30,097 nt of DNA from a virus (Duplodnaviria; Caudoviricetes). The stretch covers positions 1 to 30,097 of IMG/VR virus record IMGVR_UViG_3300020045_006770; one strand, 5' to 3'. The notes below the pieces were generated by a model, which was not told the origin of the DNA, ran no database searches, and worked only from the letters and a program-made list of their open reading frames with translations. Positions 73 through 30,097 of the stretch are shown one piece after another. Position 1 is the stretch's first letter. The number at the start of each line of letters is the position of its first letter. The position numbers were made by a program, and so were the translations under genes.

Positions 73-104
73 AAAAGGCCATCCTGATTGCTCAGAATGG
101 CCTT
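73..104 (-). terminator. Rho-independent terminator downstream of the short recombinase
   Basis: Minus strand AAGGCCATTCTGA-GCAA-TCAGGATGGCC followed by TTTTATTTATT. Confidence 0.7.
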
Positions 105-135: not shown

Positions 136-939
136 CTACATCGGAAGTGCAACTCTTGAAAGTAATTGTTTGCTCACATGAGTATAAATCTCGGTTGTCT
201 TGCTTGATGAATGGCCAAGAATCTTTTGTATTATCCTCAAATCTGTTCCGGATTCGAGTAACGAAGTGGCTGAACTGTGCCGAAGTATATGAAAGTGTGA
301 TTTCTGATCAATATATTTTTTGAAAATCAGTTGGCATGAATGAGCAGAATACAACCTTCCAAATTGACCGTTGAATAGATATTCTATTGGTTTGTATTCT
401 TTGAAGTATGCCCTCATAATATCAAGTATCACCGGAGAAAGCGGAACAACGCGATCTTTGTGACCTTTCGCATTGCGAATGTTGATAATCATTCGCTTTG
501 AATCAATATCTGCAATCTTCAGATTAACTACTTCGCTAACTCGTAATCCTACCGAAAATGCAAGCGATAAAACAGCCTTATGCTTCAGGTTTTTTATTCC
601 ATTGATTCGGGAAACAATCAAATCCTTATCAATCACCTGGGGTAAATGCTTTTCAGCTCTTGGATATTCAATGTGCCTGAATTTTAACGGCTGTTTCCCA
701 GTTAGTGAATAAAACAACTTAACTGCTGAAATTCGCTGTTTCCGACCATTTAACGAGTGTGCCAGCATCAACCATGCTTTAATCTGTTTTTCATTGATTT
801 CAGACGGTTTTGTCGCCACTTTATCGAAGTATTCCAAAAACAAGCGAACCTGAGAAGTATAGTTTTTAATTGTCAATACTCCATAATTTTTTAGCTTCAG
901 GTCTTCGGAATACATACTAACATACTTTCCGATATTCAT
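136..939 (-). CDS. Short tyrosine recombinase (XerD/IntI-like with N-terminal SAM-like domain); candidate cassette integrase
   Basis: GLRVSE, KGHKDR, HILRHS, LGHSSSKTTEIYTHV give the full R-K-H-R-H-Y catalytic set; 267 aa; no IntI-specific insertion visible before HxxRH. Confidence 0.92.
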   Translation of the reverse strand: MNIGKYVSMYSEDLKLKNYGVLTIKNYTSQVRLFLEYFDKVATKPSEINEKQIKAWLMLAHSLNGRKQRISAVKLFYSLTGKQPLKFRHIEYPRAEKHLPQVIDKDLIVSRINGIKNLKHKAVLSLAFSVGLRVSEVVNLKIADIDSKRMIINIRNAKGHKDRVVPLSPVILDIMRAYFKEYKPIEYLFNGQFGRLYSAHSCQLIFKKYIDQKSHFHILRHSSATSLLESGTDLRIIQKILGHSSSKTTEIYTHVSKQLLSRVALPM

Positions 940-977
940 GGTTTAATTATTTAAAAGTTAACTAATTACAGAGCTTT

Positions 978-997
978 TGTATAAATAGTAGTTATGG
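978..997 (+). mobile_element. attI-like recombination site
   Basis: TGTATAAA-TAGTA-GTTATGG has the same TAAA-N5-GTT geometry as the attI1 simple site; about 50 bp upstream of the recombinase start. Confidence 0.55.
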
Positions 998-1384
998 CTA
1001 ATACAAATCCTCCGAGAAAAGGCATTCAGTTAATTTGACAGTTTGACCTGAATCAAAAGCTATTTGACCAGCTTCCTTTCGATTGACAAACCTATCATCT
1101 GAAGTAATAAATCCCTGAGTTACTTTCCATTCATCGGTTGACACTTTCTTTTTTAATGATTCTTCGCCATTCAGAATATAGGAAGTAATAAAACAGTTAT
1201 GGTGTCGCCTTCCGCAAACGGTGAATCCAGAATCGACATTTCGCGGCTGATGTGCGTACTTTTTACCATCCTGATACCAAATTGCAGCGCAGATGATATA
1301 AGTACTAGCTATAACCCCAACTACCCGCAATTGGGGTGGTGTTGGGTTCTTATTGTTTAAATAATCGTTGTCACTTTCTCGCAT
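998..1384 (-). CDS. Cassette A ORF, phage-type hypothetical protein
   Basis: IICAAIW...CGRRHHNC...QGFITSDDRFVNRKEA...LFSEDLY; ATG at 1384 (or GTG at 1432) lies inside the attC-like site. Confidence 0.75.
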   Translation of the reverse strand: MRESDNDYLNNKNPTPPQLRVVGVIASTYIICAAIWYQDGKKYAHQPRNVDSGFTVCGRRHHNCFITSYILNGEESLKKKVSTDEWKVTQGFITSDDRFVNRKEAGQIAFDSGQTVKLTECLFSEDLY

Positions 1385-1440
1385 ATTGATAAATTTATAC
1401 TCGTTTCTCCCCAACTGACGTGTAGCTTCCACCGTTAGCG
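1309..1440 (+). mobile_element. attC-like site A
   Basis: CTATAAC-CCCAA-CTACCCGCAATTGGGG ... CCCCAACTGACGTGTAG-CTTCCACC-GTTAGCG, an imperfect inverted repeat with an extrahelical base. Confidence 0.75.
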
Positions 1441-1833
1441 GTCATTGTATTGCCATCCCATCGAGACGAGGTCTTCAATTTTTTTAGCCATTTTGGGATA
1501 GCTCATTGAAAATTTATCATCGTTTATGTAGGCATAAACTTGATTTTCTCCAATGATTCTTAGAACAGGCTTGTCCTCAAAGTTCAATGCAACTTCAAAG
1601 TTTTCAAACACCTTACTTTTACCAATAAATAGTTCGAGTGTAAGCGGTTTGTTTAGAAATTTTGCATACTCAACAAACATTCTATGTTTTATCGCATCAA
1701 TCTGCAAAAATGAATCAACTCCACCCCTAATATTTGGCAGTGGTGCGCCTGTTTCATTACAAAACTCGGTTGTAGTCATCCAGTCAATATTTAGGATGTA
1801 ATCAACCATTGGAATCAACTTTTTTGTTTTCAT
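1435..1833 (-). CDS. Cassette B ORF, hypothetical protein
   Basis: 132-aa ORF with AT-rich leader; its TAA stop is the complement of the TTA in the core site at 1435-1437. Confidence 0.8.
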   Translation of the reverse strand: MKTKKLIPMVDYILNIDWMTTTEFCNETGAPLPNIRGGVDSFLQIDAIKHRMFVEYAKFLNKPLTLELFIGKSKVFENFEVALNFEDKPVLRIIGENQVYAYINDDKFSMSYPKMAKKIEDLVSMGWQYNDR

Positions 1834-1869
1834 ATTTTAGTTTAAAGTATTGATTAATAAACAACGAAC

Positions 1870-2002
1870 CGCTAACATGTTGCTACCCGCAAGTTGGGTA
1901 CCCGTGGTTTGCAATCTTCATTTGTACCTGTTAAATCGGCTCTGACAGGAAAGGCTTCCGGTACTTATCCCAACCTGAACGTGTAGCACAGTACCGTTAT
2001 CC
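1870..2002 (+). mobile_element. attC-like site B
   Basis: CGCTAAC-ATGTT-GCTACCCGCAAGTTGGG ... CCCAACCTGAACGTGTAGC-ACAGTACC-GTTATCC; same arm motifs as site A. Confidence 0.75.
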
Positions 2003-2023
2003 CTTTTAGGTCTAATGTCGCAC

Positions 2024-3298
2024 CTAAACGGCCACCTGTGCGATGGCGGTTAAATTATTGCGCACCAGGCTAATTATCTGGTCGTGATATTCGCTGTTTT
2101 GATTGCATAGGCCGCGCGATTGTACAATCTCCATGCGGTCGAGTGCTACCTCGATAGTTTCGATGCTTTTTTCGTCTTTGCGGGCCGACATGATCAACGA
2201 ATTGGCTTTTGCATAGTATTTGTTGATAAATAAGCAATGATGCAGCTCGTCGCCTTCTTTCATAAATTCGGCTACATTGGCGAGTACTACAATGTTCAAA
2301 TCGCCTTCCGACAGTTTAATGTCAAAGAATTTCGCTTTTTCTAGCATATACTGTTCTTCTGCCTGTTCAAGGTGTTTGCGTTTATTTTCGGCTGATTCAA
2401 TCGCTTGTTTCTTTTTCTTTTTAAGCATTAAGCGATCGTGTTCGGCCTTCAGGCTTTTAGGGCATATATATGCGGCATTGCGTACGTCTTTCCGGAAGTA
2501 AGTCAATAAGTCTAGGTAATCAATCCACATTGAAGCATCGGTAACCGTGTATTTATTCCGGATGCAAATACGGATTGATGACCAGCGGTAATGTGTGGCG
2601 CGATCCATGCTATACCTCAACAAACTGTACTGTTTGGCTTTCAGGAGTGTTTCGAAATTTGGCGATAACAATAATTCAGTAAAAAACTTGATTGGCGATA
2701 TGTAGTGAAAATCTCCTTTAAACCCGTTGCGCCTGAAAATGGGTAAAATCTGCGCTTTGGGGTGTGTTTTCGATGGATAAAGGTTATGCCTGAAGTTTGC
2801 TTTGTAACTTCCGTTATTCTTTACTTTCATTTCGCTGCTAAATGCCCACGAATCGCAAGCGGCTGAAAGACCGTTAACCGATAGTGTCATTGTTGTTGCG
2901 TGGCCTTTTTCGTCGATCCAGTGTTGCATCACTTCTTTGGCGAAGTATTCGGCGGGCCAGTTCATCGCCAGGCGTTTGCTGATCCAAACCATGCGCACGA
3001 CCTGATAACCGCCGCATGTGGTTACAACGGCCATGTAATCGGCTTCATTACCTCTGAACCTGTAATGCTTAATTCGTTTTAGTTTGGCATTGCAGCTGGG
3101 GCAAATTTGCCGTTTGTGGTCGTTGGCTGGCTTCCAGGAGTGACCGCACTCGAGGCAATACATTTTACCCCGCGAAAGGTGGGCGTATTTTTCGAGGCAA
3201 TGATCGTAACCCCATTGTATTTGCGAATGAGTAACGGGCGGCAAAGTCCATTTACTCAACTCTGTTATTTCGCGTGCAAGCTGGTATTGTGGTTTCAT
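2024..3298 (-). CDS. pcfJ: PcfJ-like protein
   Basis: N-terminal CxxC..CxxC, WIDYLDLL..F.KD..NA.Y.CP..LKAEHD, EGDELHHC, ETIEV, QSRG motifs; follows pcfK. Confidence 0.85.
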   Translation of the reverse strand: MKPQYQLAREITELSKWTLPPVTHSQIQWGYDHCLEKYAHLSRGKMYCLECGHSWKPANDHKRQICPSCNAKLKRIKHYRFRGNEADYMAVVTTCGGYQVVRMVWISKRLAMNWPAEYFAKEVMQHWIDEKGHATTMTLSVNGLSAACDSWAFSSEMKVKNNGSYKANFRHNLYPSKTHPKAQILPIFRRNGFKGDFHYISPIKFFTELLLSPNFETLLKAKQYSLLRYSMDRATHYRWSSIRICIRNKYTVTDASMWIDYLDLLTYFRKDVRNAAYICPKSLKAEHDRLMLKKKKKQAIESAENKRKHLEQAEEQYMLEKAKFFDIKLSEGDLNIVVLANVAEFMKEGDELHHCLFINKYYAKANSLIMSARKDEKSIETIEVALDRMEIVQSRGLCNQNSEYHDQIISLVRNNLTAIAQVAV

Positions 3299-3300
3299 GG

Positions 3301-3711
3301 CTAAAACAGGCTTGTTTGAATAGATGCGGGTGTCTCTGCTTTTTTAGGTGCTTTTGGCGCGGTTTTCATTTTGGCAAGCGCTTCGGCCTGAAACTGGTTT
3401 CGTGCGTTTTCCCTTAGTTCGGCTTTGTCGGCTTCGGTGAGTTCGATGGTGTGATTTACAACCACACGCCCATTAACCGGAGCGCCTACCTCGATCTGGT
3501 CCTCATCGTAATAATGTACGGCCATGCCGAAAACCTCATCGTCGGTAAAACCATTGCATCCGCTGTTTTGAACGGTGGTTAAAATGTAGTTGATGCAATT
3601 GTCGATTGTTTTACCCTCTTTGGCAAACGATACGGCGAATAGTTCGTCGGTGGCTGCCCGGCCTTCCAGATAGCTCTGAATGGTGTTTTTAAATGCGTCT
3701 GATGTTTTCAT
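3301..3711 (-). CDS. pcfK: PcfK-like protein (AcrIIA9 family)
   Basis: FKNTIQSYL..RA..DELFA, CINYIL..VQ.SGCNGF.DDEVFGMAVHYYDED and a C-terminal SLF. Confidence 0.85.
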   Translation of the reverse strand: MKTSDAFKNTIQSYLEGRAATDELFAVSFAKEGKTIDNCINYILTTVQNSGCNGFTDDEVFGMAVHYYDEDQIEVGAPVNGRVVVNHTIELTEADKAELRENARNQFQAEALAKMKTAPKAPKKAETPASIQTSLF

Positions 3712-3940: not shown

Positions 3941-4139
3941 TGTTTACTGATTTACTGATGGATTGACTGACTGATTTTTTCCATACCGAATCTAAATTTT
4001 CGGGCCTGCAACATTCGTTTGGCGATAGTTCCGGGCATTTGCCTGATGGTATTTCGCAACCGTCGCAACACATTGGCGCATTGCGTCTGGTTGGCTGTTT
4101 TACCAGCTCGTAGGTTATTCCGTTGTAGGTGCGTTGCAT
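3930..4139 (-). CDS. Cys-rich hypothetical protein
   Basis: 69-aa ORF translationally coupled in the operon. Confidence 0.6.
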   Translation of the reverse strand: MQRTYNGITYELVKQPTRRNAPMCCDGCEIPSGKCPELSPNECCRPENLDSVWKKSVSQSISKSVNNGN

Positions 4140-4659: not shown

Positions 4660-4926
4660 CTATTGAATTACTGATGGATTGATGGATTGATTTTTTAATT
4701 GACTTATGGTCGATTTCAGGAGAAAGTATTGAGCGACTCGTTTACCTGATTTTAGCTTAATCCATTGTTTTTGGATTGGGATGTTGTAAGGATCAACCCT
4801 AAGATCGAAAATGCGGCCCTTCAGGTTCATACATTGGTAAAAATTAAGAGCTTCCAGCGCTGTTATTTTTCGGCCATCTTCAAGGTGTTTCCTGATTAGA
4901 TTCATGTGTGTTTGCGTGTGACTCAT
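4660..4926 (-). CDS. Winged helix-turn-helix protein
   Basis: IRKHLEDGRKITALEA...L.GRIFDLR...VAQY, a common phage HTH pattern. Confidence 0.75.
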   Translation of the reverse strand: MSHTQTHMNLIRKHLEDGRKITALEALNFYQCMNLKGRIFDLRVDPYNIPIQKQWIKLKSGKRVAQYFLLKSTISQLKNQSINPSVIQ

Positions 4927-8691: not shown

Positions 8692-8773
8692 GGTTTTTAA
8701 TATTGATGGACTGAAGGATTGAATGATTGATTTAAATCTGTCCTTCGGTTTATTCAGTAATTTAGTCCTTTTT

Positions 8774-8998
8774 TTAAGCTACGCGGGTTACTTCTATGCG
8801 ATTGTCGTTTGTGGTGGTGCTCCATTTTAAACCTTCGCCTCGTAGTTTTTTTTGCAGGCGTTGGATGCTCACTCGTACTGAGTCGAGTTGAATAATATCA
8901 AAGTCGGTTTTTTCGTTTACCGGCATCGTGCGCAAAGTTTTTGATACTTCCTTGCGAATTATTGCAACATTTTCGGCATTAGTTTCGTATTCTTGCAT
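8774..8998 (-). CDS. Cro-like early regulator
   Basis: 74 aa, first gene divergent from the repressor. Confidence 0.55.
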   Translation of the reverse strand: MQEYETNAENVAIIRKEVSKTLRTMPVNEKTDFDIIQLDSVRVSIQRLQKKLRGEGLKWSTTTNDNRIEVTRVA

Positions 8999-9035
8999 TG
9001 TGTATGTATTTACTTATTGTTTGATGTTTCAAAGA

Positions 9036-9082
9036 TCGAAACTAATTTCGAATTTGCAAACATTTTTCGAATATTTTTTCGA
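9036..9082. promoter_or_regulatory. Two operator palindromes TCGAA-N6-TTCGA in the lysis/lysogeny switch
   Basis: Copies at 9036-9051 and 9067-9082; a third variant at 9267-9282. Confidence 0.65.
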
Positions 9083-9103
9083 ATAAATTTTATAATGCTT
9101 AAA

Positions 9104-9457
9104 ATGAGCACTATTCATGAACGAATTAAGGTACTTGTAGATAGATTTGCGGATGGTAATAACTCTAAATTCGCAATTTTAACCGATACTAGTGAGGCTA
9201 ATATTCGAAATTATATAAAGGATGTGCAACCGAAGTTTAGTTTTCTTCAGAATGTTGCGAATAAATTCGAAATTAATTGCGAATGGTTATTGACTGGGAA
9301 GTCAGAAATGAATGCGGTAGAAGAGCCTTTATCCGAATACAAAAAGAAATCTGATGATCAATCAAAGTATATTGAGCTTTACGAACGATTGTTGAAAAGC
9401 CAGGAGGAAAAGATTAAAATTTTGGAGGAGGAGCGGCAAAAGTATTACGGAAAATAA
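9104..9457 (+). CDS. CI-like repressor (XRE HTH plus coiled coil, no S24 domain)
   Basis: IHERIK...NSKFA...SEANIRNY...INCEWLLTGKSEM; start at ATG 9104 or 9095. Confidence 0.8.
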   Translation: MSTIHERIKVLVDRFADGNNSKFAILTDTSEANIRNYIKDVQPKFSFLQNVANKFEINCEWLLTGKSEMNAVEEPLSEYKKKSDDQSKYIELYERLLKSQEEKIKILEEERQKYYGK

Positions 9458-10436: not shown

Positions 10437-11747
10437 TTATTTAAAAAACGGGTGTTGTGCCAGCAAACGGGCGTTTTCTTCCTGACTGATGCGTATATAC
10501 CTGAGAAACGAACGTTCTGTTTTGTGTCCTGTTATTTTCATAATCGAGATAGCAGGGATTCCGGCCACAAACATGTTTGTGGCTCCGCTTCGGCGTGCAG
10601 TGTGCGAACTTACCAGCGTCCATTTTTCGGCGGTGCGGCTTACCTGTCGCCCTCCCTCGGTGCGTACTGTGGTTACCGGCTCGTTAATTTGGGCCATTTG
10701 GCAAAGTTCTTTGAGGTGGTCGTTAAATCGCTGGTCGCTCATTTTTTTACTCAGGTCAAATCCGCTGGCTAATATTCCGCTAATTACGGGGTGTATGGGT
10801 ATGACTACATCGTCGTTTTTATGTGTGCCTTTTTTTGGCTTGATGCGGATGTATGCGTCGCCAATGTTGTAACGCTCGAGCCGCGAAAAATCGGATATCC
10901 GGAGGGCCGTATAACAACCAATCAGGAAAAAGGCGCGGGTTTGTTCGAGTGCTTTTATTTTCTTTTCGATGTGTAACCTGATTAAATCGGGATGTTGTAA
11001 CGAAACAGCGGCGTATGTGATTTCAATATCTTGTATTTTTTTTAACTCGGCGGCTGACAGATATACACTGTCGGCGGTTTCGGCTTCTTTTACGAATTTC
11101 CGGTGGTGATAATCGGTGGTTTCGTGCAATTTAGTACCGTCGGGGCCAGTGGCGTTCATTACTGCTTTAATGTGCTTTATAAATGTGCCAAAGGTGTTGG
11201 AAGCGTAGTATTTTGGCGGCTCATTTTCTTTTTGTTCGCGGGGTGTAATGTTTACCCAGGTGCGAAACGCGTTATAAAATGCGATGTTGATGTCGGCAAA
11301 TTGCAGCTTTCGACGGGTGGCCTGTTCGTACTTTTGCAGCACGTTGGCCGTGGTGCCATAAAATAGCCTGGTGCGGGGTTTTAAATTAGCTGTTTCGATA
11401 TACTTGCGGAAATGATCAATAAATGAATTTTCTGGTATAATGGTTTCTTGTGTTGGTGGTGGGGTGCAGCACTGTTTAATTGCTTCGGGTGTTGGTATTG
11501 TTCGGCTAATGTCGGCATCGGTAAATAGTTTTTTAGCGGCGTTCTCGAATTGGTTGAGTAGTATGTTAATGGTTTCGTGATCGGGGTAATTTCGGGTAAT
11601 TTTAGCCCTGTGTGTCGATTTATCCCAGTACTTAACCTCAACGGATGTGCCTGTTGTAATTTTAAAACGATTACCTTTATATCGCATAACCGCAAAAACC
11701 GATGTTTTATCCTTTTTTGCGTCTTTTAAAAAGAAATTTATTTGCAT
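10437..11747 (-). CDS. int: Phage integrase (arm-binding, SAM-like and catalytic domains; Bacteroides type)
   Basis: TALRISD, SSHTARRSGAT, ITGHKTERSFLRYI; adjacent attP. Confidence 0.95.
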   Translation of the reverse strand: MQINFFLKDAKKDKTSVFAVMRYKGNRFKITTGTSVEVKYWDKSTHRAKITRNYPDHETINILLNQFENAAKKLFTDADISRTIPTPEAIKQCCTPPPTQETIIPENSFIDHFRKYIETANLKPRTRLFYGTTANVLQKYEQATRRKLQFADINIAFYNAFRTWVNITPREQKENEPPKYYASNTFGTFIKHIKAVMNATGPDGTKLHETTDYHHRKFVKEAETADSVYLSAAELKKIQDIEITYAAVSLQHPDLIRLHIEKKIKALEQTRAFFLIGCYTALRISDFSRLERYNIGDAYIRIKPKKGTHKNDDVVIPIHPVISGILASGFDLSKKMSDQRFNDHLKELCQMAQINEPVTTVRTEGGRQVSRTAEKWTLVSSHTARRSGATNMFVAGIPAISIMKITGHKTERSFLRYIRISQEENARLLAQHPFFK

Positions 11748-13896: not shown

Positions 13897-16050
13897 CTAA
13901 AGTTGAGATGCAATATAATTGCCAATTAATAATCCTCCGGCGGTATTTGGATGTACGTCATCAGATAAATATGTCGTGTAATTTGATGAATTAATTAAGA
14001 CATTCCTAAGTAAATCAATGCTCTCACAGTTGTATTGCGATGCACAATTAATTATTGCATCTGCCATTTCTCCCAATTGTAATGGCGTTAGTAAATGACA
14101 ATATGCAATTGTTAGGCATATTATACGAGCATTAGGATTTTGTTCGGTCAGTTTTTTAAGAACTCCTTTATAGGCGCTATAAAATGATGGCGCATTTGAA
14201 TATACTGCATCTCCCACATACGCCTCGTCGGTGCTATTACCAAGCAAACCTATTGATAGTTCGGCAAGGTCATTATACCCACCCAAAACAAAAACAATAT
14301 CAGGATTATAATATTTAACAGAATCAGCTCTTTCATAGATTGAATTTCCTACGTGTTGCCCAACAAAAGAATCATTTATTAAGGGAATAATTTTACTGCT
14401 TCCAACACCCATTGCCACATGATATACACCAATTTCAGTCTCTTTTTCAATATAATAATATCCTTTTTGCTTGACTATTGTCGGTTGCCACTTCGATTGA
14501 AATGTTACAGAATCTCCAAGAGTAACGAGTTTTGGAGATTGTTTAATCATTCGTAATGATACGCCCCAATTTCTTGATGAGTTTAATAAACTTACAGAAG
14601 CATTTGATGAAGTAACGGCTGGCATGAACTGTCCATTAGTGCCGGCAATTTCCTGACACCCAAAAACACCATAATTTCGGAATAGAAAATCAGCACCCGT
14701 TTCTCCGTTTATATCTCCCCCCCCAACAGCACTAAAACCGCTTTCGTTTGTTGCCCCAATATTCGGATCAGAAAATAAAACAATTCCCGGAGACTTCAAT
14801 TTTCCGCCTGCAACACTTGTACCTCCAAGATAATCGAACAAATTAACGAAGTCTGTGCTATATAATGGAACCCTATAATTAATGAAATAATTTGGATTTA
14901 TGGCATTAAAATAATCAATATCCATTTGTATTAAAACGAGCGCAAAATGATTGTATAAAATTCCAAATATTGCTTGATTTGTATCCACATTATAAGCATA
15001 TCGCCACATTGCCGCTGATTTCAATGCCGCATATGTTTTTTCTTCTATACTTCCACTTGTGGATGAATATACGCTATCATAAATAGTTTTTGATGTTATA
15101 AACGTTGCATTATCCGGTACGTTATTGATGTAATTACCCATTGCTGTAACTACAATTCTGGCATTTTGTAACGCCCAATTTTGAACACCTATTGATACAT
15201 TAGGCAATTCTCCAAATGATGTTTGAAAATAATTACAAATTTTAGTTCTCTGAAACTCGGTCAAAACTATGCTGTTTACAATAATACCGTAGCAAATCCC
15301 GTTTAAATACGTGCCACCCCCAGACATTAGTTTATTGAAAACAAAATTTGATCCAATTATTAATGTTTCAATATATTCATTGTCAACATAAAAATCAATC
15401 GTTGAATTTCCATTTGCAATAAATGTAAACAAAGTATTTTTAGACGTCACTCTTGATATATCAATAGTACCTACTGCGGAAATCCCGCTTTCATTTTTTA
15501 TTTTTATAACTAGCTTGTTGTTATTATAGGTTGTTCCGATGCTAGAAATCGTGCTTCCAGTCCATGAAGAATCAGTTTGTTTTCCGTCGATTTTATTAAA
15601 TATAGAAATAGACCATTTATCTGATACATTCTTTGATATATTATTAAAGCTTAAATAATTATCGTCAGAAAATGAATTTGATATTGCATATCTATCTAAA
15701 ACAGACCAATCTCCGGCTAATTGTGGTTGTATAGTATTTGTGGTTTGTACCGCATGATTCAATTGTATTGATAAATCATAGCATTTGGTTATTCTTTTAC
15801 ATTTTGTTGTTTCATCTCTCGTTTTCAATGCGGATTCGACGAATAATGCAATGTCTGTATTATTTTCAATAGACGAAGTTAATTGAGTTTTATAAAAATT
15901 TTCTATAAAATCAATTGATTTTATAGTCCCCGAATCTAACGCCACCATATTCGAAAAATCAGATGTTTTCCAAAAAGCAATTTGGTTCAAATTTGTCGCT
16001 TGTCGAACCATTTTACCCCCACGAATGGCGGCACTTTTATAGGCTTTCAT
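13897..16050 (-). CDS. Putative receptor-binding protein: lectin-like region, FISUMP (Fib_succ_major) domain, SGNH/GDSL esterase
   Basis: IGVQNWALQN, GILYN, GGKLK..PNIGATNESGF; GDSVT, GGYND, DDVHPN. Confidence 0.75.
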   Translation of the reverse strand: MKAYKSAAIRGGKMVRQATNLNQIAFWKTSDFSNMVALDSGTIKSIDFIENFYKTQLTSSIENNTDIALFVESALKTRDETTKCKRITKCYDLSIQLNHAVQTTNTIQPQLAGDWSVLDRYAISNSFSDDNYLSFNNISKNVSDKWSISIFNKIDGKQTDSSWTGSTISSIGTTYNNNKLVIKIKNESGISAVGTIDISRVTSKNTLFTFIANGNSTIDFYVDNEYIETLIIGSNFVFNKLMSGGGTYLNGICYGIIVNSIVLTEFQRTKICNYFQTSFGELPNVSIGVQNWALQNARIVVTAMGNYINNVPDNATFITSKTIYDSVYSSTSGSIEEKTYAALKSAAMWRYAYNVDTNQAIFGILYNHFALVLIQMDIDYFNAINPNYFINYRVPLYSTDFVNLFDYLGGTSVAGGKLKSPGIVLFSDPNIGATNESGFSAVGGGDINGETGADFLFRNYGVFGCQEIAGTNGQFMPAVTSSNASVSLLNSSRNWGVSLRMIKQSPKLVTLGDSVTFQSKWQPTIVKQKGYYYIEKETEIGVYHVAMGVGSSKIIPLINDSFVGQHVGNSIYERADSVKYYNPDIVFVLGGYNDLAELSIGLLGNSTDEAYVGDAVYSNAPSFYSAYKGVLKKLTEQNPNARIICLTIAYCHLLTPLQLGEMADAIINCASQYNCESIDLLRNVLINSSNYTTYLSDDVHPNTAGGLLIGNYIASQL

Positions 16051-28504: not shown

Positions 28505-30097
28505 TTAATCTTTTGGTGTCATCAGGGTTTTGAAGAATTCGGCGGTGGCGTCGTTGTTGTTTTGCAGCCATGCACCTACGGCCATCGCCCAGGCTACCGG
28601 ACCGTCGACCGAATCCATCGATTTGTTTTTCATGATCTTGATGTTTCCGTTTCCATCTTTGTATAGCACGATGTTGCGGAACATCCAGCGCATAACGGGG
28701 TTGGTTCCCATGTCGAGCGTGTCGTCAAAGAATAGTTTTTCGATGTACTTCAGCGGAAAGTTAAACCATACGGTCGTTTGCCTGAATTTGCAACAGTTGA
28801 TAAATAGTGTTGATTCAATTTCAGGAATGATAAACCCGCTGTTCCATTCGTCGTAATTGATTTGGCGGATTTCGAAAACGGTATTCCAGTATTTGATTCG
28901 CTCTAGTATTATTTTTTGGTCGATGGTGGCGGTGGGGTGTTCAATGATGTGGCCTTTTTCGATCCATGCGGCTAAGTCGATGCCTGAATTTCGCACGCGC
29001 TTGGTTTCGTTTTGTGGGAAATAGAATTCCGGTATTACTCCATGTCGCCCGGTAACCTCATCGTGCCAGTGAATAACGATTGATGCAAGGTCGCGGGTGG
29101 CCGACATATCAATTCCCATGTATGCCACTGGTCGGCCTTCTGGTACCTGAATGTTTCTGAATGCAGTTACATAAATGTCGTCTGGTATCCATTGTTCGTT
29201 ATTGTCCAGGTAACGATTCAGGTTTTTAGTAATGAAATTGTTTTTTTCGGTGATGGTTAGTTTGGCTTTTTCCCATTCTTTCACCAGCGCATCGAGTCGA
29301 ATAGTTACCCCGATGTTCGGGTTTGCCTTAATCCATGTTGTGCTGTCCTCCACATCGTCGTCATCGTCGAGCGTAAACAGGGCAATAAAGGTAATGTCGT
29401 CCTGAATGTTGCCGTCGAGTACTTGTTTGGCGGTTTCTACCATCAGGAAAAACGGGTAATCTTTGTTGAATCCGGCGGTGCTGGTGATTATTCCGAGGGG
29501 ATTTTCGCGGCTCATGGTTCCCGATTTCATGACGTTGTAAAAATCGAGGGTTTTATGTGCGTGCATTTCATCCAAAATAAAAACGTAAGGGTTCAATGAG
29601 TCGTTGGCTTCTGGTTTATTAGCCAGTACTTTTAATATTCCTGATTTCTTTGGATAGATGATTTGGAATTGCTGAACCTTTAGGCGCGATTTCATGGCCG
29701 GTGAATTCTTAACCATGTTTTTAACGTACCTTAAACCCTGCCCGGCTTGCTCGCGGGTGGTGGCGCATAGGTAGGCTTCTGTGTCGGCTTCTCCATCGTA
29801 CATGAGCATGTACAGTTGAATGGCTACGGCAAAAACTGTTTTTCCTGATTTGCGGGCGGTGTAAATTAGCGCGTAACGATACCGGCGTATTCCGGTGGGG
29901 TAATACCATCCGAATAATTCAGAAATGATCCAGGCTTGATAAGGTGAAAGTTTAAATTGCGCGTACTTTGGGCCAATTTTAATGCGCAGAAATGAGAAAA
30001 ATTTGAAAACGTGCTCAACGGCTGAAGGTCTGAAAGTAATGTCAGGTCGTTGCTGGTCGTTTCGGCTCCGTGTGATCGCCTGTCGTATGTACTTCGA
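28505..30097 (-). CDS. terL: Terminase large subunit (5' end beyond the window)
   Basis: Frame open to the window edge; Walker A ARKSGKT, ILDEMH, ITSTAG, GIDMS, DGPVA. Confidence 0.95.
   Translation of the reverse strand, partial: SKYIRQAITRSRNDQQRPDITFRPSAVEHVFKFFSFLRIKIGPKYAQFKLSPYQAWIISELFGWYYPTGIRRYRYALIYTARKSGKTVFAVAIQLYMLMYDGEADTEAYLCATTREQAGQGLRYVKNMVKNSPAMKSRLKVQQFQIIYPKKSGILKVLANKPEANDSLNPYVFILDEMHAHKTLDFYNVMKSGTMSRENPLGIITSTAGFNKDYPFFLMVETAKQVLDGNIQDDITFIALFTLDDDDDVEDSTTWIKANPNIGVTIRLDALVKEWEKAKLTITEKNNFITKNLNRYLDNNEQWIPDDIYVTAFRNIQVPEGRPVAYMGIDMSATRDLASIVIHWHDEVTGRHGVIPEFYFPQNETKRVRNSGIDLAAWIEKGHIIEHPTATIDQKIILERIKYWNTVFEIRQINYDEWNSGFIIPEIESTLFINCCKFRQTTVWFNFPLKYIEKLFFDDTLDMGTNPVMRWMFRNIVLYKDGNGNIKIMKNKSMDSVDGPVAWAMAVGAWLQNNNDATAEFFKTLMTPKD

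Follow-up and report, generated by a model that had tools for sequence, protein, structure and literature searches.

In typical integrons, cassette genes face their attC site and depend on the Pc promoter. The recombination of hairpins has been attributed to I2, described as the innovation by which integrases can dock extrahelical bases (PMC7790495), and a bottom-strand bias of G-T pairs has been reported as a signature of attC sites (PMC5027507). A recombination site may also give translation signals to cassette genes, as described for ORF-11 and ORF-17 in attI1 (PMC8876359). For Bacteroidetes proper, IntegronFinder 2 is reported to have detected a single complete integron (PMC9024848). An attC cluster was described in Polaribacter phage P12002L (Qi et al. 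2023, PMC9892861), where attC1 did not recombine with IntI1; the sections of that paper available to us report "attC sites with divergent directions" and no cognate integrase, and mention neither an antisense rule nor internal starts. The open-access literature, subscription papers not being covered, yielded no account of cassettes with antisense genes, of starts inside sites or of a cassette recombinase without I2.

The window analysed here (the whole stretch of 30,097 nt) is one contig of a temperate tailed phage with terminase, portal, head and tail genes. A series of small genes pointing leftward ends with pcfK, pcfJ, two small ORFs and a 267-aa recombinase. The features of this region are as follows; in crossover motifs, the slash marks the point of exchange.

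75..104 (−): terminator-like hairpin of 13 pairs with a T run, just after the recombinase gene (consensus match only)
136..939 (−): second tyrosine recombinase, 267 aa, catalytic motifs GLR131, K158, H217xxR, LGH241 and IYTH251 intact, without I2
940..998 (+): attI-like site with its crossover at G991/T992 (G/TT); the ATG of the recombinase is 52 nt away
992..1434 (+): cassette A, 443 bp
998..1384 (−): ORF A, a 128-aa member of the T4_Y16D family (PF26092), with the ATG and the first 17 codons falling within attC-A
1308..1441 (+): attC-A, inverse core 1308-1315, arms 1321-1336 and 1409-1425, core G1434, spacer 5 versus 8 nt
1435..1996 (+): cassette B, 562 bp
1435..1833 (−): ORF B, 132 aa, without known family, own ATG outside the site, TAA on the core TTA 1435-1437
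1837..1878 (−): 13-codon leader ORF that begins on the attC-B inverse core and stops 3 nt short of the ORF B ATG
1869..2003 (+): attC-B, inverse core 1869-1876, arms 1881-1900 and 1966-1988, core G1996, spacer 4 versus 7 nt
2024..3711 (−): pcfJ (2024-3298) and pcfK (3301-3711), the final fixed genes of the leftward operon
10437-11747: lysogeny-type integrase, a separate gene with arm-binding and SAM-like domains

The 267-aa recombinase gives a PF00589 match of 117 bits and, given the separate lysogeny-type integrase, would be dispensable for prophage integration. Its relatives in the genome collection are mostly Bacteroidota records, which makes a Bacteroidota host likely for the phage. The leftward operon probably starts at the divergent small genes 8774-8998 (−) and 8993-9457 (+), which we take by eye to be a cro/repressor-like pair; the plus-strand gene has no Pfam match. 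Tandem 8-nt units (TGATGGAT-like) lie at gene ends (3943-3980 and 4661-4704), with similar text at ~8710-8735. At the other end of the operon, the pcfJ stop lies 27 nt before G1996, and a short inverted repeat (2001-2027) overlaps this stop codon just outside the last core.

The GTT cores of the array lie at G991, G1434 and G1996. The inverse core 1308-1315 is complementary to 991-998 at 7/8 positions, and 1869-1876 to 1434-1441 at 8/8; in phage cassettes generally, core pairing is perfect over 8 bases in 160/178, the search having tolerated up to one mismatch. The ORF stops of the preliminary description were reproduced from the sequence: the ORF B TAA is on the core TTA, and the ORF A stop (TAG, 998-1000) is 4 nt past the GTT at 991-993. 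A covariance model trained on 51 chromosomal Bacteroidota sites only matched the window exactly twice, at 1308-1441 and 1869-2003, both on the plus strand (29 bits, E 3e-4), and among 500 Markov controls two chained sites arose in 0/500 and one site in 3/500. By free energy, the folding of both window sites is no better than that of shuffles (z +0.39 to −1.22). None of the sequencing runs, all made up of contigs, had as many as half of the sequence words, and 4 of them gave no excision joint at 85% identity; in these runs loose ends occur at 999, 1432, 1874, 1877, 1888 and 2000, each in a single contig, and serve as hints. An A 10 nt after the crossover G is kept in 96% of 57 first phage cassettes and in both window cassettes (1001, 1444). 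Its absence after G1996 suits a reading of G1996-2003 as the empty half of the original attI and not as a cassette start.

We consider it likely that the locus is a phage-borne, Bacteroidota-type integron-like array with antisense genes, working by the following mechanism as a whole. The I2-less 267-aa enzyme would insert cassettes at G/TT of the attI-like site, the recombination substrate being the folded bottom (minus) strand, which is here the coding strand. A single leftward transcript would run from pcfJ through ORF B, ORF A and the recombinase to the terminator at 104-75; with such read-through Pc would not be needed, and the newest cassette would be read last, not first. Each cassette would be translationally self-contained, with initiation signals in its own front site and often a stop in its own core. 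By comparison with other loci, the cassettes behave as discrete mobile units. In the sister phage L317, whose pcfK-pcfJ is 80.6% identical, other antisense cassettes directly follow pcfJ; copies of the ORF A cassette and pairs of similar cassette bodies, described below, likewise speak for mobility. The L317 array (reverse complement, 1015-1666) includes a 216-aa cassette gene with a CxxxCxxC motif, presumably radical-SAM-like. No recombinase was seen beside that array within 2 kb of available sequence. An array after pcfJ is absent in 25/26 pcfJ relatives, so the pcfJ-array link is lineage-specific.

ORF A has its sole in-frame ATG in the loop of attC-A, at 1384; attC-A also contains a GTG (1432), which is not conserved, and no ATG, GTG or TTG occurs between attC-A and the conserved domain, which begins right after the inverse core. 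The inverse-core AAC itself is read as a Val codon. Across 20 distinct copies, the loop-encoded segment shows 600 synonymous versus 310 non-synonymous single-base codon differences, and pairwise differences fall at third codon positions in 922 cases versus 378 and 222 elsewhere. Varying mainly at third positions, the segment is very probably translated, and by these counts this N-terminal part of ORF A is under purifying selection. Two claims of the preliminary description, that ORF A has no ATG outside the hairpin and that attC acts as its translation start, thus stand on the single in-frame ATG inside attC-A and on the synonymous excess of the segment; we have high confidence that ATG1384 is used. 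A third expectation, that the extension goes with the hairpin, failed on alignment of homologues: the MRESD-type extension also occurs in 10 hairpin-less loci, an outcome that the preliminary description had itself set as refuting, which leaves the supply of the N-terminus by attC unproven for ORF A.

These loci give weight to a gene-first origin, in which the ORF A segment is old and the hairpin arms were built around an existing 5' end. Among 122 distinct members of the T4_Y16D family, 22 carry the extension, 12 of them with a full or partial site by the detector, 1 in a truncated cassette and 9 without a site; these 9 and L259 have no model match up to E 2 (10/10), and the extension is conserved as a protein. 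In the tree, built by quick search from 99 columns and 120 of the 122 rows (without L229 and L232), the cassette forms do not group together and the window lies beside hairpin-less copies, its closest neighbours L235, L236 and L255 being without a site (98% SH-aLRT). Set against this, 90/122 members have neither site nor extension, with the conserved domain beginning just where the inverse core ends, and the other cassette copies of the family (L170, L171, L174, L309) have different sites and different leaders. L252, which keeps both cores and has lost the hairpin, resembles a decayed cassette. The length and ATG spacing of attC-A match the generic family, and among 53 site-started ORFs 24/24 site pairs of at least 70% identity head unrelated genes, although these pairs are not independent and most come from one leader family. 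We therefore regard the gene-first origin as rather unlikely, and on balance favour a leader born in the site and retained by copies that escaped over the reverse course. A degenerate MRESD-loop pattern was found in viral contigs at 2 loci, both ORF A homologues, so this particular leader is not seen on unrelated genes.

Starts of this kind recur across the phage arrays. Of the 168 antisense phage ORFs, 68 have their first ATG inside their own site (the core being read as Val in 48 of these), and in 37 the stop codon coincides with the core TTA. Reading from an ATG in the Val frame stays open across the inverse core in 58/117 phage versus 6/55 chromosomal sites of the same size. The context of site-borne starts is A-rich, with A at 76-84% at −13 to −11 and 69% at −3 (n=49), which fits the initiation without Shine-Dalgarno sequences described for Bacteroidetes (PMC6847099). 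Another Met occurs within the first 15 codons in 14/53 site-started ORFs. The sharing of attC leaders by unrelated genes shows a family-wide principle of site-supplied N-termini. A bolder proposal, which we hold tentatively, is that the phage recombination hairpin is a portable translation-start module, with G/TT shuffling and a second exchange at AA/C joining hairpin-leader modules to new bodies.

ORF B, which has its own ATG, could be translationally coupled to the 13-codon leader; a leader like this one precedes the gene in 25/75 comparable cassettes (a raw count). ORF B has 33 homologues, none of its relatives was found in viral contigs, and its atlas matches are leads only. Elsewhere, a site-encoded leader of the type K.IKRFNES.ENLNISDV heads six unrelated genes in large phages (L052, L054, L055, L057, L068, L069).

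The 267-aa enzyme scores 130 against TIGR02249, below the cutoff of 265; in NCBIfam and the PDB it is matched best by archaeal XerA, and its I2 region has 41 residues versus 89 in V. cholerae IntI4 (2A3V). The spacing from K to H is 59 aa in 73/79 phage-clade relatives. The extra base on the arm opposite the cleaved AAC is absent in 134/178 phage sites, with no position conserved, and in both window sites the extra bases are on the other arm than the canonical one; enzyme and sites thus deviate from the canon in matching ways. The XerA matches, the low TIGR02249 score, the absence of I2 and the weak folding of the arms would all suit a neighbouring recombinase that is not the hairpin enzyme, with a host IntI acting in trans or an Xer-style reaction on duplex DNA, and possibly separate promoters. 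We judge this improbable. The attI-like site keeps a fixed distance from the start codon (51-53 nt in 36/57 loci), and arrays adjoin I2-less enzymes in 57/82 phage-clade loci (80 viral loci plus L083 and L084) and 25/78 chromosomal-clade loci. These were found by walking from attI, which misses some sites, with loci of less than 150 nt flank skipped; many chromosomal-clade loci end soon after the recombinase gene, and the loci are not independent. The strand-biased G-T pairing described below further implies a folded single strand. As for a host enzyme in trans, complete canonical integrons are nearly absent from Bacteroidetes in the IntegronFinder 2 survey (PMC9024848), and IntI1 did not act on P12002L attC1, the one clear member of this site family in the reported assay (PMC9892861). 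The 267-aa recombinase is thus likely to be the cassette integrase, and on comparative evidence the system is integron-like, with a predicted recombinase outside the IntI family. The identity of a CALIN was rejected, as an intact recombinase and attI adjoin the cluster, although that recombinase falls short of the IntI model. The enzyme patterns match about 6700 stored genome stretches.

Expression of the array would most simply be read-through from the pcfJ operon. The preliminary description had the cassette genes and the recombinase read from the phage operon, and the arrangement fits such a model: cassette ORFs, recombinase and the genes beyond the last site are co-directional in 40/41 loci with enough flank (16 others were too short). 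A weak scan, with about chance numbers of terminators overall (15 versus 12.5), predicts none on the minus strand from 9459 to 104. A Pc-like promoter on the attI side would be antisense to the cassette genes, and no plus-strand promoter consensus was found at 490-1367, the sigma-70 pattern being poorly suited to Bacteroidota; the promoter scan as a whole was at chance level (20 versus 20.8). What we take to be the Bacteroidetes −7 promoter motif has a match at 1094 (−) inside ORF A, a possible internal promoter, and this same presumed motif is absent between attI and the recombinase in 57/57 loci.

The preliminary description oriented both cassettes from left to right by the pairing of core and inverse core. 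That argument falls, since GTTRRRY and RYYYAAC flanks read identically from either strand; the orientation itself is upheld by comparative data, as is the placement of both ORFs on the minus strand, antisense to plus-strand cassettes, which is also plain from the sequence. In viral relatives of the recombinase (226 found, 80 kept), an attI-like motif lies ~50 nt ahead of the start codon, and its conservation reaches the GTT and is lost beyond, both in a listing preselected for GTT and in a raw listing that was not. DNA right after the 3' core differs in 14/14 close copies of the ORF A cassette, and the 5' hairpin is retained, with differing DNA beyond it, in 11/11 locatable copies, a few of which share about nine letters. 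The site spacers of phage and chromosomal arrays share one direction of asymmetry (4-5 nt after AAC versus 6-8 nt before GTT); the mirrored geometry chains 3 sites versus 178 in phages and 0 versus 72 in chromosomes. In 57 phage loci, picked from the 80 viral loci for long flanks, 203/203 covariance-model matches are on the strand that does not encode the recombinase. The bias of G-T pairs is toward the bottom strand in both phage (369:99) and chromosomal (176:49) sites, and this strand has the lower folding energy in 167/178 phage sites. As the chromosomal sites share the bias, it is not due to mRNA folding.

The opposite polarity, with a plus-strand crossover at AA/C, sense ORFs and a hairpin belonging to the preceding minus-strand gene, is therefore very improbable. 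It draws on a core pairing that fits both readings, on a longer spacer arm that lies opposite the canonical extrahelical side, on the loose ends at 1874, 1877 and 1888, and on an occasional exchange of sites at the AAC end. The last of these is seen in similar cassette bodies: among 9 pairs the right-hand site is kept in 3/9 and the left-hand site in 0/9, as expected of left-to-right cassettes and not of the reverse, and one 95%-identical pair carries different sites, which indicates site exchange near the AAC end as well. Such an exchange may reflect occasional top-strand recombination, a rare event described as an exchange at the AAC end (PMC5027507). The reversed polarity further conflicts with an attI that ends at G/TT, with a hairpin that moves with the 5' end of ORF A, and with sense-gene chromosomal arrays that share the same geometry on the same strand. 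We are confident, to the point of near certainty, of left-to-right polarity with antisense genes.

The antisense layout extends well beyond the window. Among 178 phage cassettes, 168 have antisense genes, 4 sense and 6 unassigned, versus 58 sense, 5 antisense and 8 unassigned among 71 chromosomal cassettes; by these assignments, antisense ORFs are the rule in phage arrays and are rare in chromosomal arrays built on the same sites, a near total contrast. The chromosomal Bacteroidota arrays (L085-L162, for example L128, L138 and L142) hold up to at least 7 sense cassettes and sit downstream of a long I2-less recombinase (median 375 aa), with many assemblies breaking right after the enzyme. That the phage cassettes are host cassettes inserted backwards by top-strand recombination, which inverts cassettes in reported assays (PMC5027507), or a captured piece of a host integron, is also highly improbable even with phage and host sites forming one family, because inversion would flip the site with the gene (mirrored geometry again being 3 versus 178), phage and chromosomal cassette ORFs (232 versus 82) share 1 weak match, phage bodies are half the size (median 341 versus 671 bp), and the recombinases differ, the phage enzymes forming a short clade with attI upstream and the chromosomal ones being longer with attI downstream.

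If this account is right, a whole class of phage arrays flips the textbook rule, and searches based on IntI would miss it. It would also explain the recurrent short, variable N-termini of Bacteroidota phage proteins. The requirement of I2 for hairpin recombination becomes testable, as does cassette genesis, since one gene family is seen with several sites, with none and in decayed-like cassettes. Should the module proposal prove true, these loci would let the making of cassettes be observed and would test naturally whether I2 is needed. Experiments are feasible because the cultured phage P12002L carries the same sites. Its attC1 (30004-30060) is placed on the plus strand by the covariance model, between two minus-strand methyltransferase genes, and by this match belongs to the same site family, with the antisense layout, a membership that had gone unrecognised. 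The phage (L343) has at least 8 model sites versus the two tested in the paper, other matches being at 14498-14629, 32793-32929, 38031-38094, 38875-38940 and 39118-39249; it has no annotated integrase, and gp42 starts inside one site. Cellulophaga phage Ingeline (recombinase 38%) was dropped, its sites being ambiguous and degenerate.

Compared with known systems, the phage array shares with canonical integrons (IntI1/attI1/attC; V. cholerae IntI4, 2A3V) a tyrosine recombinase divergent from attI, a G/TT crossover, RYYYAAC and GTTRRRY cores, bottom-strand G-T-biased hairpins and variable arrays. It differs from them in having no I2, no conserved extrahelical base on the inverse-core arm and an asymmetric spacer of 4-5 and 6-8 nt, and in genes that are antisense and start inside the site, for which Pc would not be needed. 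The translation signals of ORF-11 and ORF-17, as described in the sections available to us, are located on the top strand of attI and are used by the first cassette only, whereas those of the phage arrays lie in each attC on the bottom strand. In chromosomal Bacteroidota arrays the integrase is flipped and the genes are sense, whereas phage arrays keep the regular arrangement of integrase and attI, and it is the genes that are turned round relative to their own sites. With the sites of the window, P12002L attC1 has in common both the site family and the antisense arrangement of the genes.
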